DNA of 64,000 nt. Source: Octopus sinensis. Taxonomy: Eukaryota. Where the stretch lies: the NCBI RefSeq assembly GCF_006345805.1, contig NW_021826031.1, positions 62,001 through 126,000 of the forward strand, written 5' to 3'. The notes under the pieces are model-generated. The model saw only the letters and a program-made list of their open reading frames with translations, searched no databases and was not told the origin of the DNA. Shown piece by piece: positions 24,934 to 62,059 of this stretch (its first letter is position 1; each line of letters opens with the position of its first letter). A program made the translations under genes and the position numbers.

Positions 24934-25021
24934 CTGGCATAGTAACATGGGAATTGGGCTGTTTTATAGAAAGTTGATTTATGTTTCGAGTATAATAAAT
25001 AACCTTCCCTGCCATGGCAAC
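24934..25021 (-). promoter_or_regulatory. Two RFX X-box-like motifs upstream of the giant coiled-coil gene
   Basis: GTTGCCATGGCAG (25009-25021) and GTTACTATGCCAG (24934-24946). Confidence 0.55.
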
Positions 25022-37630: not shown

Positions 37631-38205
37631 TTGCTTTTATTTTAACAAATCGCATTGACTGCCTTTCGGTTTAACTAACGATTGAATTCTGGATAATTTG
37701 TGCGTCACTTTTTGTGTTTTTTACTTTTCTTCTCGTCTGAATGGTCTCTTACTGTTTTGTAATTTATTCCTGACATGTTTTTATTCTGCATTTGTACACA
37801 ATTAAAAATATAGATTTCATTTTTTATCAATATAATACGATTTCATGTTTCAGCAGATCAAAAGTTTGTTTCAAAAAAATTAAATTGACCGTCTGATTTT
37901 GACCAACAATTTAAGGGAACTAACGTGTATTTTTTTGATGTGAATTACGATTCTATTTTAATTTCAAGCTCAATATTATGTTTGTATTTAAAATAAGCAG
38001 TGGAGTCTTGCTTTATTTATAATCTCATCAGTCGTCGATAAATAAACATAAATATCCAGAACTTCCTTCAGCGCTTGTTTAAATGTGACTATGTTGTCTG
38101 CAGAGTGAATAATCCAGCCGAAAATCGACGACTCGGCAAGATTCCCACAATATTTATGACAACCAAAATAATACTTTTTAATATTAATTTAATTATATTA
38201 TTACA

Positions 38206-38592
38206 ATGGAACATGCTGAGGTGATCTTTATTGATGAAGTCGAAAAATACCAATCATCGGGGATTAAACACGTCCGACTAACTGGAAGGTATATTTAATC
38301 ATTTTCAATACAAGGTTACTATCCCGAGACAATATCGAACATTGGTGTATTCTGGCCGATGTCACTGGTGCTCACTCAATCCGCGTGTCGACACAACTGG
38401 TCGAGCCCTACGATGTAGATTAGCAAGTATTTAATGTAGGGTACCGTTGGGGGTTGTCTCCAATTTATTGGGGATCTTGTCTGTGATGGCCACGATATTC
38501 ATTTTGTGGCTTCCATATGGTGCAGAGTTAGCATCCTCGATTTAATATCATACCAATCCGCTGTTAAACAAAGACGCACTTTTCTCTCATGA
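38206..38592 (+). CDS. TEN1: CST complex subunit TEN1 (absent from the ORF track)
   Basis: Spliced: ..VRLTGR|LLS..IRVSTQLVEPYD|GTVGGCLQFIGDL..ASIWCRVSILDLISYQSAVKQRRTFLS*; parallels human TEN1 LRTFGRL, TKLVEPF, VLGEL. Confidence 0.75.
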
Positions 38593-39030
38593 ATTTTCTA
38601 TATATTTTATAGTTATTGTACTTGGTCTGACACTTTCTCTAATAAATAAGCACTGAGATCGGGATCGTCCAAAAGTAGTTAAAACATTAAGAATCCCTCC
38701 TCCGGAAGTTGGACAGAGGTCCTTTTTATGAACAGACGGATGCCTTCCGATATATGAGGTTTATATTTTTATAAAAATGTCAACTTTTATGCTTTTTCCG
38801 CAGTTTCAAGAATGATGGTTAGCATTCCTGAAACACTTTTCGTTAATTTTTCTTGTCGGTTGTCAGTAACTTGCTTATATGAGATTTAAAAAAAACAATC
38901 TTCCTATTCTCTCAGCTGAATGGACTTTTAACTAAGAATAAGTAAAGTCACTAAATTTAATAATTTTTACTTAAACGATGATTTGTTGACAATCTTGATA
39001 ACATAATAAATATTGCTACCTGGATAAATC

Positions 39031-39044
39031 ATCGTCATGGATAC
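39031..39044. promoter_or_regulatory. X-box-like motif overlapping the NPHP4 start codon
   Basis: ATCGTCATGGATAC (reverse complement GTATCCATGACGAT); the central ATG is 39037. Confidence 0.45.
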
Positions 39045-42000
39045 CCTATTTGGACACAATGAAGATGAATATTCTAATAAAATCTCAGAATATTTAAAAA
39101 TTTGTCAACTGCATAAAACTGTGCGATCTTTAAAGGATACGAGTATTTCACACACAACAAGTTCCAGTGAACTGCACACGATTGTTATCCAAGCACTTCA
39201 AATTATACACGTTTTATTTATATTTGAATTGTTCAAGAACAAAGCTCTTAAATTTTATAGCGTCAACGTCTCTCTCTTCAACACTACTTTTGGCACTTTC
39301 ATTGGAAAGACGTGGAAGGGTCCCAGAATACAAGCAGGTCTTGGGAATTACATTGACTATAATCAAGTCACTAATCTGTTTATAGTTGTAGGAAGTGATG
39401 ATCAGACAAGAATATAAGAATTTGTCTTTGAAATTTGTTTTCGAAATTGTTGGCTACGAACAAAACGACGAGCAAGCACGGTCGGTCGGTTGGTTCATGG
39501 CCTCTCTTGAGGAATTGATTTCCGGGGAAACTAAAAAGTAAATTTTATTTGTTTTACCAAGAATTTCCATTTATCGTGGATCGCCTCGTTGCTTAAGTCT
39601 TTTGTTAGCGACAACTAGTAACTTATTCTCTTATTTTAAACCAAGATTTCATGGAGCATCTTAATTCGGCGAAAATTGGCATATTTGCAGTTTGTGGCGG
39701 ATATACAACTACAATTCCCTCTCACCTCGAAATGCAAATTCCAGTTGACATTCCTATTGGACAGAACGAACATATTCCTGGAATAAAAAAGCAAAAAAGT
39801 CGAGATATATTAAGAAAATATGTAGAGATGCTGACTCAAACTCACAAACCTCAAAAACTGAGACTGTCGCAAATCACAATAAATATTGGAGACTCAAATT
39901 TTGAGCAGAGTTTGTGCAGTGTTATCCGAGAAGAGTTCGAGTCTAGTTCCAGCCACGTGCAAGTTAGCATTGAAGATCGGAATTTATATGTTTATGCTGA
40001 TTAAAATACTTGTAGTTGGAAGTGTTCAATTCCTGGCGTTTTATCGACAAAGCTAAACGTCTGCATCTTCAGACGACGAATGAGGCTCTTCAAAACTTGA
40101 TTGAAAAACGTAGACAATCCAAAACTATCACAAATAAGTAATTTTAGTTTTTAATTTACAGCTTTTTTGAGACTAAAGAACTAATGTTGGTTACCGACGG
40201 CGATGTGAATTTTGATAATTTTTTTACGGAAAAAAATGTTGTGATTGCATTTCAGTTGGAATATCAAATCAAAATTTCCGAAATTTCAAATCACGGCCAA
40301 GTTCTATTTTAATAATTTTTTGAAGTTGTTTAACAAAGAAAAAAATTTTTACAAATCGGTGATAACTGGGTGGAGTATTTGGAATCCAGTACTTTCTAAT
40401 CAGATTCCAAGTTGCCCTATATTCACACGTATTTATAAATTGTGAATCTTTTTAGGCTGTTGCGGAGTCCCAATCTCGTCTTTGGTTCTAAGTAAGGAAA
40501 TTTCCAGTAAAAAGGGAATTTTGGGGAAAATTGGCTTTAACTATGAATTTGGCGAACGGAGCTTTAATACCCCTCCAGTAAAACAGATTTCCTCTCACTC
40601 AAAGAATGTAGTCTTGGTAAGTCTAACAGTCAGACAATGTATTTAGGCACGTCAAGAAAGAATAGAAAATGACGTCGACTTGACTGAAATTCCTATCAAA
40701 TTGGACAAATTCGACAAACTGACGTTGAGTTCGTCCCAATTGTTTAATTTCAATGATCATTTTAGTGAGAAATTTGACAGCCCTTCTCGGAACGAATTGA
40801 GTTTTCTTTATTCTGTTGGTTTCACTGAAATCACGGACAGAGAAGGGAATACACCACATTCCGTCACACTCCAAAAAGCGATGGATTTGGACCAGGACCT
40901 CGAAATGAGTGACATTCTTGCTCGAAATGTCCTGACCCTCAGATTTATGGGTTTTTCTGTGTATGTTTTCTGATATTTTCAATTTGAGTAGTAACCCGAG
41001 TAAAAGTGACAATTTCTCGACGATTTCTGCTCTTTCGTCTGTTTTCTTTACTTTTCAGTTTTTCAACTTTGATTCGGTGACTACTGACAGGCAATTACTT
41101 TTCTCACGTTTAGAGTTGTGGTCGATTCATCAAGTAAACAGCCAATTTCGCTGATTAAACAAGAAAATTGTACTATTCCGGGATACCAGGTGATCTTCTC
41201 ATACTCACAGTCAGGTCCGGCTTTGTGACGTCACTTTTCCTAACCAAACTAAAGACAAGTTGAACTTTATAAAATATCTTGCCAATTGTTCCCTACATAT
41301 TGACGTGTGGGATGCACGTTCCCTCATTCGTGTGGGATTCTGTCGGCTTCCTCTTTATGTTTGTGTCTCTATTTGATCAATGTTTTAGGTTTTTCTCCGC
41401 CAAACAAGAGAAGCAGTCGAATGTTCCTGTCAATTGGACGTGATTGACGACCAGGATTTATCGGGGACTGCTTCACTGTGTCTTGACAGTGTCATTGGTA
41501 AAATCTTCATTCAAAGCGTCAATATTGGATATCCACTGACGGTGGATAAACTCATTCCGAGTAATGTAGCATCAAACATTATAGACCGTGAAACAAACGC
41601 GATGGATAAAACACTCAGACTTGGTGGAAATATAAGTATAATATCGAGTGAGTAAATTATAACAGGAACTCCCAATGGATGTTTCCTTTCAATTCCACTG
41701 GCATGTCATAGTCGGGTTTTTGACGAGTCGAGTTTTAATTCAAACCCTGAGTTGAACTTGGACATGGATCCGATCAAAAAACGGAAATTGGGGAGAATGC
41801 ACAACTCGCGAATGATGGAAACTGAAGAACTTGATTTTAGTGTAGAAACATTTGATCTTGCATTTTTAGAGACTGGGGACTTGCTTTTTCAACAAACAAC
41901 GGGATTTGAGAACCGTACAATCTTTCAGGACCTGCAACAAGTTTCAACAGATTCAGAATGCGTTAGAAGCCAACATTTCCCAGTCAAAAAAAATTACCGC

Positions 42001-43496
42001 AACAATTGGGGAAGCTGAGTTTTTTGAAATAAAAGTACGAAATCCTTTAACTACCAAACAACTGATTCATGTCGAATTTGAGGATCCCTGCCTCAGGTTA
42101 TTGTCTCCATAATACAAAAGGGTCCTCACAAACTACGAAGAATGGTGTCACTACAAAGACATTGAGAACCTTGAAACTCCGATAGAGCGCAATTTTTTGA
42201 GTTATTCAACAGAAAAACAGTGTCCAGTGCTTTTTCTTTCTCCGGGAGAGACTGTATATGTCCCGTTTGTGTACAGAGCACTTTCCGTGCAAGAAATGAA
42301 ATGCTCTCCTGTTTTTTTGTTTATTTTAGTTCAAATAGACCTCAAATAAAGAATTGCAAAAAATGACAGAAAATAAACTTTCAAATAATCCTGGAAGGGT
42401 TAAAAAAGTAGGATGTTTAAGAAGATGATTTCTATCAATTAGATATACTTTGGTTCAAAGGAGAGCACAGTTTTGATTGTAAAACTTACCGTCGAAGTAA
42501 AGCAATGCCCCATTTCACATGTGATCAGATTCATGGCATCAGCCAATGAACTGTTTAAGAAAAACATTTCGATTCCACTTGACGAGAGTATTTAAATAAA
42601 AAACATTTCATAGAAACAAAAAATCTTAGAAATCCAGTCGTCAAGTGCTCCACATCTGATTCTGTAAGTGTTGATCTGCAAACAAAAACTTATCCTCAAG
42701 AACTGATAATCAAAGTAACTTTCCAATATCAAAAGTGGTAGACAATGGTGGGAGAAGTAGCCACGGTTAAGCATATGATGGTTTTTGTGTACTCCGATCA
42801 TTTTATGACCTCCCCTCTACTCTCGATCGACATCTATGTACATGCATATCAGAGAATCGACCTCACATGTGTCCTTGGCCAGCTTACGAAAACAAAACAG
42901 CTAATAAGGCTTTTTTATTCGTTAAATAATTATTCAGAAACTTCAAAACTGATTGGAATATTAAATGTTTTGTTTCTCACCAATTTGAGGTGTCGGCTGA
43001 TAAAATCAGTGACGAATCAACACTCCACACCGGAAGTACTCCAGAAATGATAATTTGTGTCAAACCCACCGTCCTATCTCAGAGAAAATACGTCGTAAAC
43101 GTTGTGGACGTGACCAACAACCAGCTATTTTATTGTTGGCTATTAAACGCTACTGTGGTTCCCCCACCAGTGTCAAAAGTCAGTGTTGGTTGGTATAAAA
43201 GTTAGATGTTTGATGTGTGCCTTGATTCTGGAAATGTTGGCACACACAGTTTCAAACGTGTCAGTTATCGCAACATGTATTCAGTGGAGAAAACATTCAA
43301 ACTGACCAGCTCGAGACCAGATCTGGTAGAATTAAGACCTCAAGTGATGGTTCTGGAACCATACGGGAGTTTCTATATTGGAATGACGTTTACGGGTGCC
43401 TCTGGAATTAAAGGCAAGGCGGATATATACGTCTTTATTAGTGACCCTCAAGGAGCAATAGAAGATTCGTACAAAATTCTTTTAAGAATAGTATAA
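39037..43496 (+). CDS. NPHP4: Nephrocystin-4 (ciliary transition zone)
   Basis: VFFTFQFFNF, LHIDVWDARSL, GEAEFFEIKVRNP, KRVSYRNMY..TFKLTSSRPDL; many micro-introns. The start is inferred. Confidence 0.85.
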
Positions 43497-44865
43497 TTGA
43501 GAATTTTGCTTATAAAAATGGAATTTTTTGTTTAGAGCTTATTTTAAATAATCTAGTATAAAATACATAATTGAAAAAAGAAATGGCAAAGTGTTAGTGC
43601 CCCTAAGAGTCGATATGCTTTATAAAAGCATCTTCTACTGAAATCTGGATTGGCTCATTTATGGAGAGGGTAACTCACGACTCATCTGAGTATCGGTATC
43701 ATCAGAACGTTGCCCATAGTTGATTATCCGCCAACAACCATTTTCTTGTTCTGTGAAATTAATTCAAATGAAACTTCCAGAAATCCAAAAAATTTTATTG
43801 AGAAAAATTATTTCAAAATCAATAAATTATTCTTCCCTGGAGATTTATAAATCAGGCTATTCATGTGAAACACGTTTCAAATCAAAAAAATCAGAATTGA
43901 CAAAATTATGGAGCATTTTATTCATTAAAATTCATATTATACGCATAGTTAATTTCAATTATTTTATGAATCTGTAGCACAAATCCATTTTCCAAACAGA
44001 TAACCAATTTGTGTTTTTGGTTACTATCGTCCTTTTAATAAAGACTATGAATTATGAATTGAAAATACCGATCATCAATTATCATAAATTGATTCGCTTT
44101 TTATAAGTTTGTATTTTTCGGATTTAGATGTAGTTTTTACGAGTTTTTGGAGTAATACATTTACAAGCTTTTGGTATTCACTGTCATTTTTCACGTAACC
44201 TAAGGATTGAGACTATACTGATACAACATCTTTTAGAAGATACCATCTTTTAATTAAAATGATGTAAACCCTTTTTATAATAAATTATTTTCGTTATTAA
44301 TTGAATGTCAAACTATGTAGGTCCGAAATGTTTAAAATTCTGGCAGCATTTACACAACATATTATCAAAGGAATAATTAATTCTTTTATAAAAATCAATT
44401 TTTCGAAAGAGCCAAACTAATTGAAATGATGTTAGGAGCCCTGAATGTCGAGTCAATGTGTGTACTGACATACTGACCAGTGACACACTCACACATTACG
44501 GAAATGACTTACCCTCTTGTCACCGCCCGGTGAGGCGACACGGGAAACGACGGTCCTCTGTTGTTTCGCCACTCCAATTTAACTAGAATTAGATAATCTC
44601 GGAAAACCTTAGATCGGATAAAGTCCTGAATTATTTCTCTCTTGAAAATACAATTAGGAACTTTCCTGGAGTGAATTTAAAAGAATTGGTAGACTTTACG
44701 CTCTCGATTATTTTATGAATCTGTAGCACTTATCCATTATATCCGTTCTGTTTTATCAAGTTATAATAAGAAAAGTAGACTTTTTATTACTAATCAAATA
44801 TTTGGATTGTCTTAAATGAATTTCTATAACTCATAGTGAGGAAATTTTTTTTAGCCGAAAAATAA

Positions 44866-46023
44866 TTAAAATAAAAAATCAAAATCAAATGGATTTTTTT
44901 CAATCTCTACGTTTTCTTTGATCTCTAAGGTTTCTTTTTTATCACGACACTTTTTCCTCAAATCAGAATTAGCTTTCAAATCAAAATTGTTACTTAATGT
45001 TTTATTAGGGTCTTTATGTTTAGATTCCGATTCGAGGAATATAAATTTTGGCTCGACGTCATTTTCTTGCTCTTCTTGAATTTCATCGTTCAAATTATCT
45101 TTGATTACTTCATCTAAAAAAATTAATATTTGCTGTAATTACCATTTTTCTTATTTGTCAGCAATTCTCGAATAACTTGACAAGCCTAAATATTCACATT
45201 AAACTTTTAAACTTTTTCTTTGCAACTTTCGCATTCTTTGGGAACAAAATAGTGATAAAATAACTCGACAATTTCCAAAATATTTCGATCATTTACGACT
45301 TTTTTCAGAACAGACATTAATAGATCAATAAATCCAGCGATCTGAGTTTTATAGAGTTCGGAAAATTCTTTGACATTGTATTTAAAGAAAGAGAATAATT
45401 TGCAGCCGTCTGCTTTTTCAATTTCACGGAATGTCAGTTTCCTAACTAATATATAATTACAAACTTTGCAATAAATATATTCTCACTTAAAGACAAGGGT
45501 GGAGCATCCCAGAAAAGTTCCTCCATTTCTATCAACATATTAAACATGTATTCCACATCCTTTGATACAAGTCTCAAACTTTTTTAAAACATTTTGATTT
45601 AACCAGAAATTGTTGTTTTCGTCGGCAAGTTGCCCTAAGCTTATCGAATCTTCATTTTCCGAATCATTTTGAGATTTAGTAAATGGAGACAAGCTTTTTG
45701 ATTCTTTTATCTTTGAGGATAAAATGTACGCATCGACTTGTGTCGAGAGTGAAAGTATTCGACTGTTTCGATATTTACTTTTATATTCTTGTTGTAAAAG
45801 TAAATTATAAATTTTTGAATTTCGACATGTTTTTTTTAAAGACGACGTTTTTCCTGTGTCATTCATGCTTATATTTTACTGCTCTCCATGGAAACTTAAT
45901 CTTATTCTACGAATGTATATTTAATTTAATTTCAAGATGTCTATATTTAATTAATACTTCATGTAAAAACTTATTATTTGTTTCTTCTAACATTTTTTAG
46001 GAACAACACCCTGTAATATCCAT
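44866..46023 (-). CDS. Hypothetical multi-exon protein
   Basis: Coding-like exons separated by GT-AG micro-introns; no family recognised and the 5' end is uncertain. Confidence 0.4.
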
Positions 46024-46235
46024 TTTGGTTTAATGAAGTTTATATATTTTTAATATAAATGACCAGAAAACTTGATTAGTGTGATTTTGTAGACATTCTC
46101 GCTAACTCATATTGATAAATAGTCATTTTGAGTGGAAAATAAAACCTGAAAATAATGAATTTTGTAATTGTGGTCAAAACACAAAATTTATTTTAGATTG
46201 ATAACGCAACAAAATGAATTTAAAAATATAAAAAA

Positions 46236-48219
46236 CTAACTATTCAGATCATTAGCTTGACGAGAAATAGCGGTGGTGAGTACAGCCGTGTTGTATTGAT
46301 CGGGTGTGATCTAGTGACTGATCTCTACTAACCCAACCATAATATAATGAACATCTCCAGTAGAACGGGCATAAAAGTCAGCCACCGTCGCAGACTTGCC
46401 GCTACACAATAAATCACATCAATAAAAACCGCATCAAAGCACTAAGACCGAAATAAAAAAATTGTCCGACATCAAAACGCATTTCATCATTTCCAATAAT
46501 AATTTCGACTTTTCCGTGAAGAATAAGAACAAAGCAGTCAATCGGCTGTTTGTTTCTAAACCAAAAATGAGGACATTGATCTCCAGAGGGGTGGGAATAT
46601 GTACTGACACATTTACGAACGAGTCTCTCCAAAATAGTCATTGAAATAAATTTATCATCAAACGGCTCCAAAGCTAAAAATAAACAGGAATAGTACATCT
46701 GAGAAACAAGAGGACTGCAGTTATGATTTGAGAGGAGACAGACAGTTCGTGGGAATTAAACAAATGATTGAACTCGACGTTTCTCACTCTTTTGACTCGA
46801 CTGCGGTTGTCGGCTAAAAATTGAGAACAAAATATAACTGATGATGTCGGTCTCGTCTATGATTTCGGCCTGAATGATCTCCTCGACAATATCCTCCAAT
46901 GTGATAACTCCCACGACATCAGACGAACCATCGCCTCGGAGAACTATAGCCATGTGAGACTTGACTAAGAATGAGAGCAATAACTTACCAGATATGAATA
47001 TTTTAAGAATAACGTCCAGCGGAGTGTCTTCTCGGATGGTTATAAGTTGGTGACGGTAAAAATCACAAACAGTACGGACGGGGAGACAGGCGTCTGGATC
47101 GGCTACCATGAGATGTTTCACATTCAGAATGGCGACAATATCATTGACAGATTTCCCGAAAATGGGGATCCGAGTGAATCCCATGGCTGCTATCTTTTGG
47201 AGTGTCTCAAAGTCGAGGACCGCATCATATCCAAGCATAAACACATTATCGATGTAAGTCATGACCTCCCCCACCATTTTTTTGCTTATTTGAAGAGCCC
47301 CGTTGATTATGTCCATCTCATTATGTCTGTACTCCTCGTCACGTTGTGTTTCAATAGATATAAGAGCCATTAATTGCTCATTGCTGTATCCACGGTCAAT
47401 GTTTTCTCCAATTAGCTTAGTCAGTACAAATGAAACCGGAAATGACAGTGGAAATGTCATCACCATAAATAATTTGGTCAACCAAATAGTTTTGGCCCCA
47501 ATCATAAGCCCGTGTCTAGAACAGATTGCCTGAGGAACAATTTCCCCAATGATAACTATAGAGAAAGAGGAGTAGATCCCTGCGAGAAAGCCAGGTCCAA
47601 CCAATTCAGTCAGGATAATTGTGAGTGAAGTCATCACCAGCACATTTCCAAAGAGAATTGTGCACAAAAGATAGTTTCCATGTTTTCTGACTGGCCGAAT
47701 TATCCGTGCGTAGGATTTCTCCAATGCCGACCCACATTGTTCAAAAATCTCCAATTCCGTCAATTTGAGAGACATGAGTCCCAAGTTTAATCCACTGAAA
47801 AGTGCAGACAGCAACACACAAATTATCACCAAAAGAATGGCAATCCATAAAGGAATTTTGGCATGCGGTTTTTTAATTACGGTTATGGCAGTCCAGTTTC
47901 CCTGGTGCTCACATGACTTTTTTGTGCATAAACATGAGAAAAATGTCCCGACATGAGGGAATATCACCATAATGTCAGCATAGTCACCCAATGGGACAAA
48001 GGAATTAGGAAATATTAAAGAATTGTTGGTGCAGTTGAAGGACGATTGAGTATAGGCCAGGGAATGAAGGTTGTTGCCAATTGCTCGTAATGTGGAATTA
48101 GTCAGACTTACTGCAGTTATTTTGTTAGTCGAAAATGACACAGAATTGTCCACCCCGGGGGAATAGCCTATCAGTTTTGAATGTGCATCAATGAAAAAAA
48201 GCAATAAAATGGTTCTCAT
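46236..48219 (-). CDS. CNNM: CNNM metal transporter (signal peptide, DUF21, CBS pair, CNBH)
   Basis: LSALFSGLNLGLMSL, GNYLLCTILFGNVLV, GEIVPQAICSRHGL, GFTRIPIF, GVITLEDIVEEIIQAEIIDETD. Confidence 0.95.
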
Positions 48220-49733
48220 TGACTATCCTCCTCCGATTAGTAAAAATTTAGAACGGAATAATTAAATTCATTGGCTAAATATCAATCATAGTTTTACGTT
48301 TAACAAATCTATTTAAACGCTTATCATATTACAATAATTTGATTTTAAAATTAAGATAAATATATTATCGGAAAAAATATTATATTTATTTAGCTAATTC
48401 GTATTTAATTAATCTCTAATGATATGAATCACAAGGTTAAGTACATTTTACTTAACTGCAAACTTAATTGGATTAAGAATTTTTTTATAGGATTAATGTT
48501 TTTTTATACATTAAAGATTAAAACTTTTTAAATATATTTAAGATGTATAAAATGCACTCTGGCTGCTAAAGTATTTTCATTAAAAGATGACCTAATAAAC
48601 AATTTTGTTCTATTTTTGTTGAAATAATAAATAAAATTGGAAAAGATTTTAATATCTTTTGAAAAATTGTGATTGCTATTTTTTGCAGTAATTTTATTTT
48701 AATTATTCAAATTTGTAAAAAATTATCAAATTTATGCAGTGAATAAGTCGTTACAAAACATTTTATTTTAATGATAAGTTCTTTGAACACAAAATATTTC
48801 TCAGAGTCGTAAGCAAGTCCTACCAGTCCGAAGATTATCGGTGCACGTCTTATGCTTCTAGAATACAATCTCTCTTGATAGAATTGAAGTTTTAGCAGTC
48901 CGTAAAACAATTTAAAAAAGCCTTTTTTTAGTTGGTAAGTGCCTAATATCAGACTCCGTAAGAACGACCAGGATCCCGTCACAAAATACCCACCGGAAAA
49001 GTCTTCCAGTAAAGGACACAATACACTCTCGAAACTAACAGTAAATGTTTTTAATTCAACTAAAGATAAATTCGATTTCAACTTCCCAAAATTAATTTTC
49101 CGTATTATAAGAGAATGAAGAGGAAGATGGGAGTGCATGTGTAAGATATTTACTTTATAATTACTTAAAAGGTTCGCATTCAAAAAGATTATGGGACGAA
49201 TCTTTCCTTGAGATTAACCAGGTTCGAACAATTATACGGAGATACAGTCACTATTGTTGCAAAGTTATCTAACAAATTTGTCAATGTGGAAAATAGTGAT
49301 GAATCACTGATGAAAGTACATGCCAAACGACTCAAGAAGCTAAATAACAGTTAGAAATAATAATTTTTGTTGATCTATTAATAAAATAAGTTAATTTGAC
49401 ATTGAGTGAATTTGATTGGTCGGGCTCACACTGCGCTCGCGACATATTATATACGAGTCAGTAATTGGAAACATAACATAGTCAAATGTGCGAGTGTGAT
49501 TATAGTGCATTCCTAGACTGCTCGCGAATTGTGCCTCGTTTTATTTAATCAGATTCCGATTGATACAAGCTTTGTCCAAAATAAGAATTTGGGATTTTTC
49601 TCAGCGAAATGAGGTCCACTCTTCAGTTACGGTAAAAAGGATTGTAACCAAGATCACAAAGGATGGCATTTATTCTGTTAAAGACAGAACCCAACTAATA
49701 GTAAAACCACAAAAAACAAAATTTAGCTAACTT

Positions 49734-49930
49734 TTTTTTATTAAAACAATAAGGACGTGAAAAGACAGCTAAGCTAATTACTGGCCTCATGAGACACCCG
49801 GCCAGCCTCGCGAATGGCGAAGCCGTTCCCTCGGATCACAGCAATCGACAGACGTTCCAGGAGCCAAGAATACTCTCTTGGATCGTGGCTAGTCCTTGAA
49901 ATCCGTCGGCCGAGCGAGCGAAGGAAGCGG
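49734..49930 (-). mobile_element. CRE-like 3' retrocopy with A-rich tail and 12-bp TSD
   Basis: ATTTAGCTAACT at 49722-49733 and 49931-49942; encodes FLRSLGRRI..SWLLERLSIAVIRGNG. Confidence 0.75.
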
Positions 49931-50219
49931 ATTTAGCTAACTATTTTTTTAACTTAGTCATTAGTACAGTCTATATTTCTTCTTTCAAACTTTTTTTCTA
50001 TTAAATTAAAATGTTTAAAACTACTTCAACGCGATTATTCGATAAAATATTTATTATTTTTGCAGCAGAATAATACGGAGACTCAAACTTATCCAGTCGA
50101 TTTGTTCCAAAGTCATTTTTAACCCGAATTTATTTATTAATTTTTTTAATTGGTACTTCATCTCGCACGCTAAAGTATACTTACTATTATAAACATTTAT
50201 TCTCCTGTTCATAGCTTTT

Positions 50220-51300
50220 TAATAACTTGAATTTTCATATGTCCAGAGCATTCGACTCTGTTCACAGAACTAAACTTGTGGAAATACTTATGACCTTCTT
50301 AAATTCATGACGACATCAGAATAATCCTAATGTTCTTCAGAACACTCAATTAGCAACCAAACTTGGTAAAAATGTGTCAAACTATTTCTACACATCACGG
50401 GGCATTACCACAAGGCGATTCGCTGTCCCCAGTCTCTTTTCGTCTATTAGAGGCAGCACTCAGAGACTTTCGGCCTCTTGTGGACAACATAAATACAACG
50501 AAATAATATATGCTGGATGTCGACTTCGTATTGATGATGCTGAAACCCTTCGATTTATTATCGAAACATTACCAGATATTTTTTCCAAATGGTTCTAACA
50601 ATCAACCACAATAAAACTGAACATACGAAATTTATTCGATCTGAACGAACTCATGATGAGCCCTGGAGAAGACAAAAAAAAGTCGGATCTCTCTTAGGGG
50701 ACTCTGAAGACATTATGACAGACAGAAAAATACTATCAATTGCCACATACAATAAGTTTATGAACATCTGGCGCCTAAAGAAGCTAATTCAAAGACAAAA
50801 CTTAAATATACAACACATTTGTTGTCCCAGTCCTAATGTACAATGGATCGACGTGGGGAATGTAGACCGATATGAACAATTTGGACCGATTTCATCGGAA
50901 CCAACTGAGAAGTGATAAAACATGCAATTCTAAGGAAAATAGCAAATTCCACCCTATACAAAAGATGCATTCGAGACCGATCTCTATGGACATCCTGGAG
51001 TCAAATGGCGACTCTTTGGACACATTATTAAGACTTGACAGCCTCACTCCGCCGAATATCGCGATGGAAAACTACTTCGCCCATTCAAAGGAGACTTCCG
51101 TGGAAGACCCAGGGTCACTCTGGCTAACACGCTAAATGAAGATCTAGCTGGAATTAATAAAAAACTGAAAAATGGCGATGATCTCGACTACTCAGGACGA
51201 TCGCAACTGACCGGAGAGCCTGGAGACGCATGACCGGGAGAATTTCAATGGTGGCACAAGGAAAGCTTAATTAATATGACTTTTCCGAAGTGCTTATAAT
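50220..51300 (+). mobile_element. RTE-like LINE, RT C-terminal half, frameshifted by many small deletions
   Basis: MSRAFDSV, PQGDSLSP, near-identical to 58089-58718 over the shared part; ends TTATAATAA. Confidence 0.85.
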
Positions 51301-51377
51301 AAATTTCATCAATTGGGTCGATTTCGAAATTTAATCTCTTCGCAGTTGGAAACAAATTGTCTGACTGGGAATAGATT

Positions 51378-52460
51378 TTAAATCAAATTATATGAATTTT
51401 CAATAGATTCTGTAGTCGAACAATTAACAAAATCTTCCATTTGTTCGTAAGTCACACAGTAATCACTTAAATTATCTAAGACATAATGTGATATAATATA
51501 ACCATGGATTATTGAATTTATTCCCTTTATTCCTCGACATCTTTTGAAAAAACATTCGTTAGAAGATGAATGGACAGATATGTTATAACTGTACAAATCA
51601 TTTTCGAATTTATCAACCCACTTTTTTTACTGTTGTCTATCATTTTTGACAACTTCCTAGTTATCGTTTGATTAAATATTTCGAAAATTCTTTGAGTCCG
51701 AGGATTAATGGGCCTTCAGTGAATTTGTTTGATATTAAAATGTTATTTCTTGATTTTTGAATTCAGACACATTGTCTGATTGGAGAAATTTTCATGGTCG
51801 ATATAGGCAAAACAAGGATCCTAAGTTTTGACACACTCTTACCAGACTTATTACAGAGTGGTCGTGCAAATGCAAATCTATAAAAAAAATTTTTAACCAA
51901 CCTACTATAAGTGTCAATGGCCGTTAAAATCTATTTGAAATTTTCGTTTAGTGTTGAAAATCTTTTCAGATCTATTATGTCTATTTAAAAATGTTGATTT
52001 GGACAAGAAGCGAACACATGGTGATTTATATTTCCAATCTACAATTAAAAAAATCTTGAAATTTTAAAGGACGCGAAAATCTGCAAACTTGAAAAGATCT
52101 TTTGATAATCTCATTCTTGACAGAAATATCTTTGTCGACATTCATATTCAATTTTATTCACTTCTGCGTGTGAAAACTCGTGTAAAGATTTCGCCACAAG
52201 CTCCATTTCGGGTTCATTATCGCGGGATATGACTAACTTGAGATCACTTGATTTAAGATAAAATCTGTAAATTTATTGGAAATTTACAATACCTGTCATT
52301 GATAATAGTAAAATTCTCTATCTTCTTTTAAGTCTATATTTTGGGTGCTTCGGGAGATTTTCAGGAAATTTGTAATGTAATGCATTTTTTAAAATTTGAT
52401 ATTCAACGCAGTCTTTTACAGAAACCCTTGTAAGAAGGCATTGCAACAAAATAATCTTTC
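51378..52460 (-). mobile_element. Degenerate rve/DDE integrase (Ginger/KRBA2-like) with two micro-introns
   Basis: HHCC-like LHEFSHA..C, IDIIDL, ILTAIDTYSR|FAFARPL, LQSDNVSEFK, RPINPRTQRIFEIFNQTIT, YNISVHSS; introns at 52265-52292 and 51878-51901. Confidence 0.75.
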
Positions 52461-53199
52461 ATGCTAAATATCACGCTGGAAATTAAAGTTTGCCGCTATA
52501 AAAAATAAAATCTTTATAATCATAACATTTATAAATAAGAACTAATTTTTTTTATTTTCAGTTTGTTAAATTATACTATTAAGAACTAATCTAATAAAAT
52601 CACGATAAAACTCGGATAAAAAAATTTAGGATAATTAAGATATTTTTAAGGTCAAATTGATTGATTTATTTTAGTTTTAGAAAATTTAATATTTTAAACT
52701 TATTCTGAAAGTCTTGCGTGGATGTCTCTGGTTTATATTCTCTAATAATTTAACAAATATAAAAACAACAAATAATTTAGTCCTGCTTAAATAAGACTTA
52801 CTAAATTTGTGGGGAAAAAGTCATTTTCTAATAAAAAAGACGTTTAAGTCAATAAATGATGGACATCAACGATTTATTAAGCCAAAATACGAACACCAAT
52901 GTGCCAACAAATATATTTACATACCATTTTTGTCAATAATTTACAGTCAAACCTTTCTAATTTACCTCCTCTATGATTTCCTGCTCTTCTTTTTTTACCG
53001 AAAAAATAAATTCTGTTTTTCCTAGTTACATTGAAAACTATCAAAAACATAGTAAACAAGGAACGGAGAAAAAGAAAAAAATATTAATAAATTATTTAAC
53101 TGTTGTTCCTAAAAATGTTCTCAAATAAAAACTTATTCTCTTATCTTTATTTAAAAGAAGATGATTTCGAAATTTAATCTCTTCGCAGTTGGAAACAAA

Positions 53200-53592
53200 G
53201 AATCTGTCTCTGAATCCCCCTTCGACTCTGAGTTCTCTTCGGCTGTCAGATGCTGGTTCGCTAATGGCCTCAAAGTTTCTGTTGATTTGACCAAACAACG
53301 GCAATGGGACACAATTTTTTCCGACTACAAGTTCGTGCTCCTCAAGTGTTTCTCAATCAACACCGCCTGGCCTGTCTGCTCGCAGGGTCCCAAAAGTATT
53401 CAGGAGCCTGGCTGACAGCCATCCCAATGGCGTCAGTCGGGACATTACTGGATAACAAATGTCTCCGCATCGCAGTTTCTCTGCGCCTTGGATTGAACAT
53501 CTGCCGCAGTTCGAAATCGTGAGAATTATTTGTTCTACGTAAATTAAATTTTAACTATACGATTGACCTTTTCTTTATTTTGACTAATAAAC
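53200..53592 (+). mobile_element. CRE-like internal fragment flanked by a 14-bp direct repeat
   Basis: [37 protein letters not shown]; CAGTTGGAAACAAA at 53186-53199 and 53593-53606. Confidence 0.7.
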
Positions 53593-53738
53593 CAGTTGGA
53601 AACAAAAAATTGCAAACCTCCTTTTTTACCACCTCCCTTTTTGTCACTATTTTGGTCGGTCCTGGCAATAAATAGAGGGTTGAGTGTGAATGTAATGATA
53701 CTTATTTTATTCCGAACAACAAATGTGTTATTTGTTAG

Positions 53739-54877
53739 TTAATTGTCATCACTTTCCTGAGGTTCTGCCGGCTCATTTTCATCCGGCTCATTTTCATCCG
53801 CCCCATTTACCTCATCTCCATCAACTTGCTCGAGATTCTCTTCCTCATTATCATGTGTCGTGACACCCACGATCTCCAAATCTTCAGTGATGTTGTCGTC
53901 TTCGTTGTTCTCTTCCAATGCTTCCTTGTCTTCATTTGCTGTGATTTCCTCTTCGTTGGGAGGCTCCGAGACTTGATCGACTGGTTTATCCTCTTCCTCA
54001 ACTACGGGTTCCTCGGGTTTGATTTCTTGGTCTAAAACTCCACTTTCGATGATTTGTTCAGGAGGTTGTGGAATCTCAGTGGTCGTGTTTGAAGAATAGT
54101 TCTCGATGGAATGGACCTTCCACTTGGGGGCAACATTGATCTCCTCTTCTTCTGGGTGTTCCTCGTCCCCCTAGGCTATGTACAGAAGTAATCCAACCAT
54201 GTTGATGATCTCATATGTACCGATTTGTGCACAGCCGACATCAAAAATGTATCGGCCCCTTCCTTGTGGCTATTGGGAATATATATTTTCGAATAATACT
54301 TTATTATTGTTGAATTTGCCTACGAATTTGTGGTTCCGGTGAATGAGTTCTCCGTACCCCACTTGCTTGCCCTCTTTCCACATTCCGACGTATTTCGACC
54401 CTCCTTCTGCGTAGGTGTAGACCCCTCGGCCATTCCTCTGGTTGGAGTACCACTCCCCCTCGTATGTGTCTCCGTTCACATAACAATATTTCCCCAATCC
54501 AAATCTCTGGTCGTTGGCCCATCGCCCTGTCAATCAGTTTACAGGGGATACCTTCGTATGAAGACCCGTCTGGATAATAAAATGTGCCTTCTCCGTGTTT
54601 TAGAGACCCCAAATACTCCCCGTCATAGCGTGAACCATTTTTAAATCAATTTGATAAGGCACATGTCTTACTTATACAAACCACGTCCATTTCGTTTTCC
54701 ATTTTCATATTGTCCTTCGTATGTGTCTCCATTGGGAAGTATTGCCTTGCCGTAACCGTGTCTTTCTTCATTCTCATTTCTTTCCCCCTCGTAAGACTAG
54801 AGGGACTAATTTTAGAACAATACTCCGAGAGTTGGGCCCTGCTCTTCCTCCCCTTCTTCTGAGTCAGTGAAAGACAT
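53739..54877 (-). CDS. RSPH1: Radial spoke head 1 (MORN repeats, acidic tail)
   Basis: [55 protein letters not shown]; five introns, one apparently GT-TG. Confidence 0.9.
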
Positions 54878-54888
54878 TTCCCTCTTCA

Positions 54889-54901
54889 ATTACTTAGCAA
54901 C
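54889..54901 (-). promoter_or_regulatory. X-box-like motif 11 nt upstream of the RSPH1 ATG
   Basis: GTTGCTAAGTAAT. Confidence 0.5.
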
Positions 54902-55079
54902 ACTATTTTTTGAACACAGAAAATAAATAATAATATTCAATTAAATTATAGAAACGTCATTGCTCCTCTTTAAATGTGTTTTTAATCATGTTTTCAGAAC
55001 TGCCCTCTGATGTACAAAATATTTTTTTACAAAAACAGAAAATTATAAGCTAATTAAGATTTTCATGTGCTACGTTTAG

Positions 55080-56780
55080 TATCCTTCCACACATTTGTTA
55101 CCATTCTTCCTGTTATTTACTATTTTTCGTAGTGCATCGAGATCCTCTCCACTTTGTTTATTCCTGCTAAGCCTTCGGCAAGAAAAGTGGTTATGGGCTT
55201 TCACGGAATGCCTATTTGGATTGAACAAAATAACTTTCCATGGATCTTTTTTGTCGGAGACCTCAATGCACACAACACATCCTGGTACAAATCAAACTCT
55301 AACAACTTTCGCGGAAACCTAATATGTGAATAATTAAACAATCTATTCATCCTCAACAAACTCAAAAAATACCCCCTCCAACCATACCAATCAAACCACA
55401 ACACCACCTTTTGGATATCTCATTCTGCTCTCCAAACCTAACATCAAATACCACATGGAATACAATTAATGAACTATCATCAGATCATACACCAATCCTA
55501 ATACAAACAAATGCCATAATCAACATTCCGAACAATAACACGTTCATAAACTACAAAAGAGCCAAATGGAGCCTCTATAAAAACGGAACCGAACAATTTT
55601 TCTTGGAAATTACCGGGGACATACGCCTGTCAAATATACATAAATCCAACAAGCTTTTCACCGATATTATCTCGAAAACAGCGAAGACACATCCAATGGG
55701 GAACATAAGGAAATACAACCCGAATTACACCAAGGAAATAGCAGATTTAATGAAAACTCATGACAACCTCAAACACAATACGTCATGGATATTGCCACCC
55801 GACTAAGAGAGCTAAACAAGAAGATATCTAACAAACTCAAGGAAAGGTAAAAAAAACTGGCGTCAGTTCGGCAATACCCTCAACTACAAAACAAAAACAC
55901 TCTTCAACACAATAAACAGAATCGTCAACTCGGACAATGGAGAAACCCATGAGTCTATAAAATCTAAAAATGGTCTACCCACTGACAAAGAACATGCCAA
56001 TCCCTTGATGAAACACTTCAAAACATAGCCACCGCAAACGAGATTGTCACTCACACAAACCACGAGTACAGAAATACCTCCTTGACAACAATTCCAATCC
56101 ATTCATCCAATAAGAAGTGAAAAACGTAATTGCCATCCTTAAGCAATCCCATGCAACTGGACCCGACAACATTAGCAGTTTCCACCTCAAAGGTCTGGGT
56201 GATCATTGATTAAAATATCTCACATCGATACTAAATGAATCTTTTAACAACAACACCATCCCACAAATATGGAAAATTGGGATAATTGTCACAAAATTAA
56301 AACCACATAAACCAGCTGCCGACCCATCATACTGACCAATCACACTTCTGTGTACCTCCTCAAAAATAATGGAACGTCTAATTTTAAACAGAATATCTCA
56401 TAAACTTTTAATTAGCAAAAAGCAACATGGCTTCAGACAATATCATTCAACGATAACTCTATTCACAAATATGACACAAACAATATCAAACGGATTCAAC
56501 AAAAAAAACCCTCCCCTTCGGACAATATTAATCATTCTGGATCTAAGCTAAGGTTTTGACCCTATTCTGCGACTCACACTAACAAATAAAATCATAAACA
56601 CAAATATTGATAATAACTTAAAATAATGGATATCCAATTACCTCAGTGGGAGACAAGGTTATGCCCAACTCAACAAAAACGCTCAAATACATGAATCCTC
56701 CTCAATAGAGAACCTCAGGGCTCAGTCCTATCCTCCATACTTTTCAACACTTACCTAAATGACATTCCTACACCGTCCAG
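55080..56780 (+). mobile_element. Degenerate I/Jockey-like LINE (AP endonuclease + RT)
   Basis: GDLNAH, LSSDHTPI, ATGPDNI, PITLLCTSSKIMERLI, QHGFR, PQGSVLSSILFN; multiple stops. Confidence 0.85.
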
Positions 56781-57084
56781 ACAATATCAATCATTCCTTT
56801 TTATTATATTACAATAAATAAAATTTAAATGTTATAAGTGCTAAATTTTTTAATTATAAATGCTAGATTTTGTGATTTTTCAACGCTAAATTTGTTTCAA
56901 GTGCTAAAAAAACTTTCCCTAATGATGACCCAAAGACCTCAAGAAAACCGCAATCTCATAACTACCGCGTCTAAGGGAGAAAATTATTCGGAACGCTCCA
57001 CAAGCAATCTGACTAAATAAACTAATCTTACAATTATATTTTAAATTCCAAAAAATGCATGTTAATAAGCAAATTTAGTATGAA

Positions 57085-57904
57085 TTAGTCATTCTTTCCA
57101 TATTGCTGATATTCCGTCTGATACATTCGAGGAACACTCATCACGTGTGTTGTAGAAGGGGCTATAATCAACTACCAAAACCAACAACCCACTGCCTGAA
57201 CATTAGCCTCCGGCATACTCATTCCCGATATTTGTCTCCCAACATAATTCTGACTATACTCACTCACCTGTGCACTACAAACTCACTCCGAGTCACAACC
57301 AGGACAAAACAGGCCGAGAAATATGCCGAATTGTACTCTCCTTCCTTACCACTTTTGTCGGTCTCGACTCAGTTCTGAACAATGTTAGCTCGTCACGTGA
57401 AAATGATCTGTGGGTCATTCCTGTGGTAGTTCCGTAGTCTTCAACCACATATCCGACCGTCCCCAGAGGTCCCCTTTGCTCCAATCCTTTCCCTTTCAAT
57501 GTCCCGATTGGTCGTGGAGTAACAAAATCTGTCCGTGTCACTGAAATGTCTTTCGAAAAAGGTTGATCAACAAATGGTCCCCCAACCTGGTCAAAATAAA
57601 CGGAAACCTTCGATTTGCAGTAATTCACGTTATTTAGGCCAGTTGGTTTGGATAATAATTTGTTTCCGTAGCTGTTTCCCCCGGCGTTTGTGCCTGAAGT
57701 GAATTTTCTGTCAAAATTGGTGTGGTATGTGGTCGAGTAATAATTTCCCGACATTGTTTTGTTTCCAATTTTAAATAATGGAGGAATAGGTCTCTCTCCA
57801 GCTAACTAAATGAATTTTTATGGGATTTTAGGCACTGGAATTTTCGATGGCGGGAAGACATATCCTGTCTTCCACGTGTTGTAGTTGTCAAGGGCAGATT
57901 CCAT
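57085..57904 (-). CDS. Probable ciliary microtubule inner protein (weakly SAXO4/PPP1R32-like)
   Basis: Spliced ORF with three introns; short motifs YSTTYHTNF, SVTRTDF, SEYSQNY, MYQTEYQQYG; X-box-like motif next to ATG; head-to-head with PACRG. Confidence 0.55.
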
Positions 57905-57905
57905 C

Positions 57906-57918
57906 GTTGCCGTGACTC
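57906..57918. promoter_or_regulatory. X-box-like motif 1 nt upstream of the ATG at 57904
   Basis: GTTGCCGTGACTC. Confidence 0.45.
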
Positions 57919-58088
57919 TTTATAATAAAAATATTTATTATTATAATTTTATGGTTGATTAACAGTTTTAAATTATATTTAATTCATTTTGAAGAGAAAA
58001 GGCATTTTAATCCTAATTTACGTATTAATGACGTAAGCAGATCCTCGGGTTTTTTGAATAACCACATAACGTGGATATATAAAAAATA

Positions 58089-58718
58089 TTATTATTATAA
58101 AGCACTTTCGGAAAAGTCATAAGTTAATTAAGCTTTCCTTGTGCCACCATTGAAATTCTCCCGGTCATGCGTCTCCAGGCTCTCCGGTCAGTTGCGATCG
58201 TCCTGAGTGAGTCGAGATCATCGCCATTTTTCAGTTTTTTATTAATTCCAGCTAGATCTTCATTTAGCGTGGTAGCCAGAGTGACCCTGGGTCTTCCACG
58301 GAAGTCTCCTTTGGAATGGGCAAAGTAGTTTTCCATCGCGATATTCGGCGGAGTGAGGCTGTCAAGTCTTAATATGTGTCCAAAGAGTCGCCATCTGGAC
58401 TCCAGGATGTCCATAGAGATCGGTCTCGAATTGCATCTTTTGTATAGGGTGGAATTTGCTATTTTCCTTGAGAATTGCATGTTTATCACTCTTCTCAGTT
58501 GGTTCCGATGAAATCGGTCCAAATTGTTCATATCGGTCTTACTGATTCCCCACGTCGATCCATTGTACATTAGGACTGGGACAACAAATGTGTTGTATAT
58601 TTTAAGTTTTGTCTTTGAATTTAGCTTCTTTAGGCGCCAGATGTTCATAAACTTATTGTATGTGGCAATTGATAGTATTTTTCTGTGCATAATGTCTTCA
58701 GAGTCCCCTAAGAGAGAG
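58089..58718 (-). mobile_element. 5'-truncated RTE-like LINE, intact frame, (TAA)n tail, 12-bp TSD
   Basis: KLKIYNTFVVPVLMYNGSTW..RWRLFGHILRL..RGRPR..DRRAWR; ATATAAAAAATA at 58077-58088 and 58719-58730. Confidence 0.9.
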
Positions 58719-58782
58719 ATATAAAAAATAAATATACTTTTATAAATAATAATTTAATAAAAATAATATTAATTAATAAAAG

Positions 58783-58795
58783 GTTTCCAGGACTC
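58783..58795 (+). promoter_or_regulatory. X-box-like motif 4 nt upstream of the PACRG ATG
   Basis: GTTTCCAGGACTC. Confidence 0.4.
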
Positions 58796-58799
58796 CCAA

Positions 58800-59537
58800 A
58801 TGCTATGCTACAAGAATAACAAAATTTCTCAAAAACTAAAACAAAACGAGCAACCTCCAGTAGCCGGGGCATTTAAACAACGGAAAGCAAAACCTTCACT
58901 TTTCCGTTACTACTACGAACGAGGGGACTTCCCCATTGCCCTCGAACACGACACAAAGGGCAACAAAATCGCCTGGAAAGTTGTTTCTCTCATTTAATTG
59001 TCAGGTGGAAATAGAAAAGCTGAACTACAGGCACTATCTGCCACTCTTTTTTGACGGCCTCAGCGAGACTGAGCATCCTTATGAGTTCTTTGCCAGACAA
59101 GGAGTCCACGACATGTTAGAACACGGGGCTGGAATGGTGAGAGATATTGTCCCTCAGTTGATCCTTCCAATTAAAAGTGAGGACATAAATTAGATTGTAG
59201 GTGCTCTTGAGACGAGGAATCCCCAAGTGATTTGTACTACTTTGAAGGTTATTCAGCATTTGGTCTTGTCGGACGAAATGGTGGGACAGGCTTTGGTCCC
59301 TTACTATCGACAGATTCTTCCAATCCTCAATATTTTTAAAAATTTTAACCGTTTAACTTTTGGTTGAATAATTTAGTCAATATTGGGGACGCAATTGACT
59401 ATGGGCAACAAAAAAAGGAAAATATTGGAGATTTAATTCATGAAACGCTCGAAATACTCGAAATCCACGGAGGAGAGGATTCTTTCATAAACATAAAATA
59501 CATGATTCCTACATTCGAATCATCCATTCTTAACTAA
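58800..59537 (+). CDS. PACRG: Parkin co-regulated gene protein (axonemal inner junction)
   Basis: [57 protein letters not shown]. Confidence 0.95.
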
Positions 59538-60439: not shown

Positions 60440-61148
60440 TTAGCTAAAAACGAAAAGAGTTAAAATGCGCAGCGGATCGACTGGCAATTCCCTCGCATGA
60501 TGGCCATGAGATCCTTTGAAAGAGTCTGATCGACTCGTTGGGATCTTTCGTGGCAACCACGAGCTTAGATCCAAGGCTGCGGGAAGAAACGATAGCGTCT
60601 GCGGCCGATGACTCCAGAGGTTTCCACCGCGACTGCAGTGAATTGGTGATTCTTTGCCAGGACCCGGTACTTCTTCTGTTTTGTTAGTTCCGCCTGCTTT
60701 GCACTGAGCCCGGTTCCGCAGCGGAGACAATTAGATTCTTGGCGGAGAAAGTGTCGGAACAGGTGGCGTCCCAGATAAGGCATTTCCCCTTTTCAAACGG
60801 GAAGATTGACATGCCATCCGGGGCTTACCGTCGCCTCTGTCGAGCCCGACTGGTTCGAGTCATTAGGAAACCCCGCCGTCGTTAGGGCACGGCTCACGGT
60901 GTCGTTGATGGCGGCGTGTCGTGGGAAACGTCCGGCACTACGTGAGCAGGAGAGAGGGGATGATGGCCAAATGAGTCCACTCTTAAACCGCAGCGGCACT
61001 GGTGTGTTTTGCAAATGGGAAGTCCGAGGCGGAGAGAGACGGAAATCCTTACACAGTCGTTGTCCATTAAGGTGCCGATTGACGCCATAGGGATTGCTGT
61101 AAGCCATGCACCGGAATATGGTTGCGAGGCGGCCAATAAGCAAGCCAA
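60440..61148 (-). mobile_element. CRE-like retrotransposon C-terminus (CCHC knuckle + restriction-like endonuclease)
   Basis: [45 protein letters not shown]; frameshifted. Confidence 0.85.
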
Positions 61149-61256
61149 AATTATAAGAAATCTTTACGAGAATGCTATAGTTAAAGAAAATAAGCCATTT
61201 TTGAACTCAAAAATTAAAATGTTCATAAGAATTAATTATGTAAATTCTATCTTAAA

Positions 61257-61832: not shown

Positions 61833-62059
61833 AACTGAATGTCATTTTAATTTCCTGCTTCGCACCATTTTTGAATATAAGGCAAATAAATACTAAAAAA
61901 GATTTGAACAAATGAAGATTTCTTATCATATCTGATGACAAATGGAAAGCACAATTTTTTCTGAAGAATGCATTTTTCATGTGATCCTGAACAAACAAAA
62001 AAGCCGTGAACAACTTAAAATATTTCAACAGTGAAATTTGGAACAGGTTGATTTGGCCT

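Follow-up and report, generated by a model that had tools for sequence, protein, structure and literature searches.

The stretch of DNA analysed here (64 kb, referred to as the window) comes from a genome that looks dicyemid-like, with introns of about 26 nt. Four of its genes, treated below as the ciliary set, carry an X-box-like motif at the start codon:

39037..43496, plus strand: NPHP4-like gene with a weak ASH/Ig-like C-terminal domain (Cep192_D6, E=0.036)
53739..54877, minus strand: RSPH1-like MORN-repeat radial-spoke gene, with a spliced RNA-like contig over its 3′ part
57085..57904, minus strand: spliced gene, likely for a SAXO3-type microtubule inner protein (weak evidence); called the 57904 gene
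58800..59537, plus strand: PACRG gene with three introns (22-26 nt), encoding 221 aa

The first gene was named from sequence signatures, which we take to indicate NPHP4; homologue searches gave no match for this identity, and the predicted fold is of low confidence, with weak, Ig/MSP-like matches. The acidic N-terminus of the gene starting at 54877 presumably fits RSPH1. The 57904 gene is likely to be ciliary, judging from weak hits. Its C-terminal peptide matched SAXO3 with E=0.89 in a PDB sequence search, and its look-alikes in the Atlas are CFAP68, CFAP143 and CFAP95 (0.90-0.92, low recognition). No Pfam match and no homologue were found for this protein, and the other PDB sequence searches returned antibody noise or nothing. 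Its sole profile-library match, P0001, is an unnamed repeat protein and was judged spurious.

The start codons of NPHP4 and PACRG held up on inspection. The NPHP4 ATG is the sole methionine codon of the first 110-codon frame, an in-frame stop lies four codons upstream, and no AG acceptor is present within 90 nt. For PACRG, the N-terminus measures 60 aa up to KIAWK, compared with 59-84 in 24 homologues. A putative divergent gene start is located at 39004, near NPHP4.

An earlier note had reported four motifs at these starts, and all were found, with the ATG inside the motif at NPHP4 and gaps of 11, 1 and 4 nt at RSPH1, the 57904 gene and PACRG, respectively. Each motif occurs only once, and the observation itself is confirmed:

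39031..39044, plus strand: X-box-like site centred on the NPHP4 start codon (39037), 7.0 bits
39015..39027, plus strand: additional X-box-like site of lower score, lying upstream of the NPHP4 ATG, 4.8 bits, three mismatches to GTNRCC-N-RGYAAC
54889..54901, minus strand: X-box-like site of 13 bp, 11 nt upstream of the RSPH1 ATG (54877), one half being a perfect GTTRCY, 11.0 bits
57906..57918, plus strand: perfect RFX half-site GTTGCC paired with a poor second half, separated by 1 nt from ATG 57904 of the minus strand
57884..57898, minus strand: second X-box-like site, in codons 3-7 of the 57904 gene, 8.5 bits
58783..58795, plus strand: X-box-like site 4 nt before the PACRG ATG (58800), 6.9-7.0 bits
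58722..58782, plus strand: AT-rich tract, an example of the kind that precedes most start codons

The ciliary sites are placed between the AT-rich tract and the ATG. The first 10 nt of the NPHP4 motif are identical to the validated odr-4 X-box. A DNA contig (run X1, depth 61, possibly from the source sample) spans 38100-41173 with four differences, none of them in this motif, and the RSPH1 motif is likewise free of differences among the four listed of six on the contig spanning it. The motif at the 57904 gene lies, as written, on the strand opposite to its gene and scores 3.9 bits, or 6.4 bits as a 14-bp site; the best-scoring site at this start is the second one at +7 to +21.

RFX factors bind double-stranded DNA near the transcription start through one strong GTTRCY half and a looser second half, and activate ciliary genes. 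Measured against this element, the four sites are individually weak matches: each carries two or three mismatches to GTNRCC-N0-3-RGYAAC, none matches the relaxed worm consensus exactly, and a perfect GTTRCY half is present in two. The strong half lies on the antisense strand at the 57904 gene and on the sense strand at RSPH1 and PACRG, so that both orientations occur, which describes occurrence and not function.

Start codons were scored with a matrix derived from 31 validated X-boxes of C. elegans, allowing the site centre to lie at -30 to +15 of the ATG. Within this range, which was chosen after the sites had been seen, the four ciliary starts reached 7.0-11.0 bits and all exceeded the 13 non-ciliary starts in the 64-kb window (best 6.9 bits, CNNM), giving U=52 of 52 and an exact p=0.0004. 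If the 57904 gene, whose ciliary role is unproven, is left out, three starts against 13 still give p=0.0018. A threshold of 6.95 bits or more is reached by 4/4 ciliary starts and 0/13 controls, by 0/20 upstream gene-bins and by 7/117 other control bins; among the downstream coding bins of the ciliary genes, 4/16 reach 7 bits. The sample behind this enrichment is small (n=4); for one of the genes a ciliary role is unproven, and the name NPHP4 comes from sequence signatures. One control, CRLS1, scored 9.5 bits at its first-pass start, which has since been corrected to 29602; with the old start, a hand count gives U=49 of 52 and p of about 0.003. The closest control is

48212..48226, minus strand: borderline site centred on the start ATG of CNNM; at 6.9 bits it is on a par with NPHP4 and PACRG (7.0)

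Weak by-eye matches could arise by chance in a start-codon context, as an ATG followed by G(C) supplies the centre and right half of an X-box and thus free score. In agreement with this reading, about 8.5% of the 2038 ATG triplets pass the 7.0-bit cut-off, CNNM comes to 6.9 bits, and a right half of at least 5 bits starting in the ATG, without a left half, was seen in 9/24 PACRG homologues, which the common Met-Ala start would explain. In the window, 131 positions score at least 7.0 bits, and none of the four ciliary sites is in the top 20. The ciliary set is also richer in GC from -25 to -1 (p=0.016). Of the four sites, however, three make no use of the ATG, and the 17 starts tested contain two perfect GTTRCY halves, each at a ciliary gene. 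Local shuffles that kept the composition and held the ATG+1 fixed gave p=0.042, 0.012, 0.012 and 0.060, that is, only 0.04-0.06 for NPHP4 and PACRG taken singly, but a combined Fisher p=0.0003 (0.002 for the three named genes; controls 0.40). We regard chance as an unlikely explanation.

In our view the four sites are probably RFX binding sites of the ordinary kind, X-boxes at the transcription start, which would lie near the ATG through short leaders and promoters; from the sequence we assign this reading a probability of roughly 0.65. They resemble the RFX/DAF-19 X-box in their inverted half-sites with one strong GTTRCY-type half, a spacer of 1-3 nt, either orientation and a position at ciliary starts. 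They differ in that all lie within about 25 nt of the ATG, compared with a median of 94 nt in C. elegans, and in their more degenerate second halves. The distance of about 50-200 nt quoted earlier for C. elegans is correct, with 28/31 validated boxes in that range (60-767 nt overall), but distance to the ATG in that species is not the right yardstick. RFX sites gather around the transcription start both in S. rosetta (60.4% within 50 bp) and in testis genes of mammals (-91 to +129), and short leaders alone would thus explain the closeness. The earlier interpretation as a whole is partly supported: the sites are X-box-like, stand at real starts and are enriched at ciliary starts in the window. 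Its picture of motifs collapsed onto start codons holds for proximity (no more than 25 nt from the ATG in 4/4), but only at NPHP4 does the motif contain the ATG.

According to the proposed mechanism, the organism would possess an RFX factor and the sites would lie in or at the transcribed leader. No mention of RFX was found in the texts of the dicyemid papers and the single supplement that were searched. RNA-like contigs of CNNM extend 37 and 47 nt upstream of the ATG, a lower bound on the leader that applies to this gene only, and sites within 25 nt of the ATG would fall inside a leader of that size. None of the RNA-like contigs listed reaches a ciliary ATG, no common loose end marking a spliced leader was seen among the matches listed, and an orthologous locus in a close relative was not found. 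Both strands of the canonical palindrome contain an ATG, and overlap is therefore to be expected where leaders are short: a box there would either supply the initiator, as may be the case at NPHP4 and perhaps at 45889 (see below), or lose its central ATG, as may have happened at RSPH1, the 57904 gene and PACRG. A central ATG is indeed present in 20/31 C. elegans boxes versus 0/3 leader sites here (p of about 0.045), an argument for ATG avoidance that is weakened by the fact that 13-bp boxes lack a central ATG by their form. In the leaders of the 24 PACRG homologues, sites of at least 10 bits occur in five where 1.2 would be expected; they lie at -28 to -95, and all lack a central ATG. Monomer sites are not enriched (8 vs 6.1 expected). 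On the proposed mechanism, start-codon overlap would be a by-product and not a separate function.

X-boxes at start codons have been listed in Drosophila, at -22/-6 for CG14870/GA13310 and at 5 for GA13881 (PMC2375033 Table 2). These conserved boxes likewise adjoin or lie past the annotated ATG of dRFX-regulated genes; they are exceptions there (2/16 genes with a listed conserved box), whereas here 4/4 tested genes show the arrangement. A second comparable case is the TISU/YY1 element (PMC2518114), a transcription-factor site that holds the initiator ATG of short-leader genes. Factor and sequence are different, and the translational role of TISU was demonstrated by experiment, whereas here such a role would be hypothetical and the ATG lies inside the site in 1/4 genes. 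The TISU case shows that a factor site can contain the start codon, and the ciliary sites could by analogy be selected dual-purpose initiators, combining an RFX site with an initiation context for very short leaders and fixing residues 1-3. Two further boxes bear on this idea:

45882..45895, minus strand: near-canonical X-box centred on ATG 45889 of a gene of about 297 aa, 10.9 bits, absent from the earlier note
25008..25021, minus strand: near-canonical X-box centred on ATG 25015 of a 57-codon ORF, 11.0 bits

The sequence GTTKCCATGG occurs only twice in the window, both times on these candidate start codons, and the ATG of NPHP4 is the only possible initiator in its frame. Against a dual purpose, the ATG lies outside the motif in RSPH1, the 57904 gene and PACRG, so that the invariant ATG of a TISU-like element is not found. 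The box at 45889 alternatively lies 17 nt before an equally good in-frame start downstream (ATG 45866), and the frame beginning at ATG 25015 runs for just 57 codons. Nor do leaders have to be ultra-short (at least 47 nt for CNNM), and the Drosophila box 5 nt from an annotated ATG was judged to mark a mis-called start (PMC2375033). This makes a selected dual function quite improbable. The box at 25015 precedes the likely start (24818) of a large coiled-coil gene by about 190 nt; that ATG 25015 is itself the start of this gene was rejected, since there is no splicing into that frame. For the gene at 45889, no Pfam or PDB match was obtained and the protein model has a pLDDT of 46; the protein may resemble BART-domain proteins.

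The earlier note had also pointed to an unusual GACTC half shared by the 57904 gene and PACRG. The shared half is present, but it is a two-site match made after the fact, and PACRG leaders of other organisms contain weak halves of a similar, GACTA-type form. One could suppose that GTTKCC-NN-GACTC, instead of a standard X-box, is recognised by a different factor or one altered in this lineage, or acts as an RNA element, and the window, both strands taken together, does contain this pattern exactly two times, at these two starts. However, it was derived from those very sites, the weak half often begins with GAC (7/31 C. elegans boxes) and the other sites lack the pattern. Relative to their genes, the sites at the 57904 gene and PACRG moreover point in opposite directions, which speaks against an RNA element. 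We consider this explanation highly improbable. The 57904 site also runs opposite to that of RSPH1, which fits a DNA-binding factor.

A broader version of the finding would have the X-box anchored to the start codon genome-wide, either on the initiator ATG (RFX site, Kozak context and codons 1-3 in one) or, without an ATG, within the last 25 nt of the leader; as part of this joint reading, proteins would start with Met-Asp/Glu/Ala-Thr type sequences. We hold this extension to be doubtful. If it were true, scanning 45 nt per gene would be enough to list the ciliary genes of a 30-cell animal, and ATG 45889 would mark a new one. As for the predictor of ciliary genes proposed earlier, ciliary starts are enriched in the window, but X-box screening is an established method, and about 8.5% of the ATG triplets here pass the same cut-off.

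The sites are likely a modest positional variant of a known element and not a new mechanism, and the accepted picture of RFX action would remain unchanged. If the arrangement holds genome-wide, the RFX ciliary programme would persist in an animal of parasite type and strongly reduced organisation, its site restricted to some 45 nt around the ATG, under a simple rule by which a transcribed X-box becomes the start codon or loses its ATG. X-box screens would then be more specific than the 0.5-3 kb scans of worm and fly, and would aid in naming fast-evolving ciliary genes overlooked by homology searches, as happened here with two of the four genes.

The earlier note had placed X-box-like motifs, the paired inverted half-sites bound by RFX factors, at the start codons of four ciliary genes. 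Each motif is present once in the window, at the claimed distance from its ATG:

39031–39044, plus strand: NPHP4 (ATG 39037, plus strand)
54889–54901, minus strand: RSPH1 (ATG 54877, minus strand)
57906–57918, plus strand: the 57904 gene (minus strand)
58783–58795, plus strand: PACRG (ATG 58800, plus strand)

The identity of RSPH1 is backed by MORN repeats and by extended matches to RSPH1 chains, that of PACRG by a Pfam ParcG match. The name NPHP4 is presumed from sequence signatures; domain and structure tools add only a weak C-terminal signal of ASH type, and homologue searches returned no match. Contig alignment shows that the 57904 gene is spliced. The sole match of its last 28 codons is sea-urchin SAXO3, near the SAXO3 C-terminus (E=0.89), and its Atlas look-alikes are microtubule inner proteins (low recognition). 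This gene is likely, but not proven, to be ciliary. By eye, a second short SAXO3 stretch in that alignment resembles an internal motif, which a direct search did not confirm.

The start codons hold up. For NPHP4, no Met other than the start ATG occurs in 110 codons, a stop lies four codons upstream, and there is no splice acceptor within 90 nt; no upstream mini-intron is possible for the 57904 gene, and the PACRG N-terminus resembles those of its homologues in length. RSPH1 could have a leader intron, which would enclose its X-box-like site. A coding-looking stretch on the minus strand (38540–39004) has its ATG 32 nt from that of NPHP4; if this is a genuine divergent gene, the promoter that the two have in common would be tiny.

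The window is rich in genes (GC 35.5%), and the 34 introns of our own gene models have a median length of 26 nt (range 21–31). Contigs of two sequencing runs (X3 and X4), when aligned, show gaps of 24, 27 and 21 nt, the sizes of introns found in CNNM, RSPH1 and the 57904 gene; they therefore act like spliced RNA. Dicyemids are reported to have a median intron of 27 bp (PMC6543705), a genome with 36.7% GC, a mean intron of 38 bp and 49% repeats, and a ciliated epidermis (PMC6736024). The short introns match these values, and we infer that the DNA may be dicyemid. LINE-like remnants are also present:

50660–51260 and 58140–58720: inverted dispersed pair
55080–56770: LINE-like remnant
60440–62860: LINE-like remnant

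On the upstream side of the PACRG site, one LINE-like copy comes to within ∼60 nt, so that little space is left for a distal PACRG promoter. A high-copy element occupies 49439–50105, where a contig of run X1 has a depth of ∼17,000 vs 60. The 3′ part of GTF2E2 and a CDC25-like rhodanese gene form near-identical tandem copies (5130–6770 and 6771–8400), either a recent duplication or an assembly artefact.

Starts were scored with a two-half matrix from 31 validated X-boxes (PMC3245922, Table 1; spacer of 1–3 unscored) between –30 and +15, a region chosen post hoc by the earlier note. NPHP4 scored 7.0, RSPH1 11.0, the 57904 gene 8.5 and PACRG 7.0, against –4.9 to 6.9 for 13 non-ciliary starts. These controls were annotated by hand with Pfam support for most; the names TEN1 and CRLS1 are our presumption. 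The predicted excess at ciliary starts was borne out (rank test, p=0.0004 for 4 vs 13 and p=0.0018 for 3 vs 13); nine more unclassified candidate starts also received scores but were kept out of this test. Mismatch and half-site scores gave p∼0.003–0.013, approximate owing to ties, and with local shuffles the Fisher p was 0.0003 and 0.002 for ciliary starts vs 0.40 for controls. A score of at least 6.95 was reached in the –30 to +15 bin by 4/4 ciliary genes and 0/13 controls. Elsewhere, the ciliary genes reached it in 0/20 upstream and 4/16 coding bins, the controls in 7 of 117 other bins.

Several points weigh against this result, the post hoc choice of region included. The CNNM control reaches 6.9, and CRLS1 scored 9.5 at an earlier-placed start; its start was reset to 29602, which gives a longer frame. 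The window holds 131 positions scoring at least 7.0, the top 20 including none of the four ciliary sites, and ∼8.5% of its 2038 ATG triplets reach the cut-off. In the form first noted, the 57904 motif scores only 3.9–6.4: one of its half-sites is perfect, the other poor. Just two places in the window, 57906 and 58783, carry the pattern GTTKCC-NN-GACTC, and it was from these two sites that the pattern was derived.

GTTKCCATGG occurs only twice in the window, centred on ATG 45889 (10.9 bits) and ATG 25015 (11.0 bits):

45882–45895, minus strand: near-canonical X-box on or just before the start of the 45889 gene (44866–45889, ∼297 aa)
24842–25200, minus strand: region with the best canonical X-box, which is centred on ATG 25015, the start of an ORF of 57 codons

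The 45889 gene has RNA-like contigs over 45612–45846 and could instead begin at 45866, where a second ATG lies in frame; it is a candidate ciliary gene, and its product may resemble BART-domain proteins. ATG 25015 lies ∼190 nt ahead of a very large coiled-coil gene, which likely starts at 24818 and extends to ∼17100 or beyond, and 24842–25200 may hold a small extra gene. A tandem array at 13900–17100, whose ∼119–120 bp units resemble a repeated exon plus mini-intron, may form the end of this coiled-coil gene.

For comparison, 80 PACRG loci were collected from metagenome contigs; 77 were examined and 28 had an unbroken N-terminus. Excluding four (a duplicate, a frameshift, a 10-nt leader and an ATG in a probable intron) left 24 loci from unassigned taxa, most of them mRNA-like. 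Strong X-box-like sites (at least 10 bits) occur in five mRNA-like leaders (L010, L074, L040, L008 and L009) vs 1.2 expected, at –28 to –95 and all without a central ATG. Sites of at least 8 bits numbered 7/24 (3.8 expected) and monomer sites 8/24 (6.1 expected). The start codon begins a right half-site in 9/24 loci vs 0/109 internal Met codons, which are non-independent; a Met-Ala start thus supplies part of the match for free. Leader X-boxes and half-sites on the ATG are therefore not unique to the window's genome.

Promoter-proximal X-boxes are described elsewhere. Of the RFX-like motifs in S. rosetta ciliary genes, 60.4% are no more than 50 bp from the transcription start (PMC10530576); human X-boxes lie both upstream and downstream of the start (PMC5838959), RFX1 sites of testis genes are enriched from –91 to +129 (PMC3602658), and the ALMS1 box lies at –49/–38 (PMC2913254). 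Relative to annotated ATGs, conserved Drosophila boxes are reported at –22/–6 and at a distance of 5 nt; in the 5-nt case the ATG was considered a mis-called start, and X-box presence in one genome alone was not predictive (PMC2375033). TISU is a YY1 site with the initiator ATG inside (PMC2518114), and YY1 exerts its effect immediately downstream of the start (PMC13017510). Among the open-licence papers listed, we found no earlier report of start-codon X-boxes as a general rule or of RFX in dicyemids.

The start-codon motifs are confirmed, and their interpretation is partly supported. On the basis of four genes, the sites are most likely a well-known element in a variant position. They are of mixed orientation and placed between an AT-rich tract and the ATG. 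A 20-nt tract with at least 19 A/T, ending no more than 61 nt from the ATG, precedes 15/19 starts (e.g., 57917–57960) and may signal where the core promoter or the leader lies. RFX would bind a strong half-site near the transcription start, and leaders would measure tens of bases; RNA-like contigs give CNNM a leader of at least 47 nt. The central ATG is missing in 3/3 leader sites here and 5/5 strong homologue sites, 13-bp boxes lacking it by form. We propose that short leaders of tens of bases bring the X-box next to the ATG and, because 20/31 validated boxes have a central ATG, that a transcribed box must either turn into the initiator or shed its ATG.
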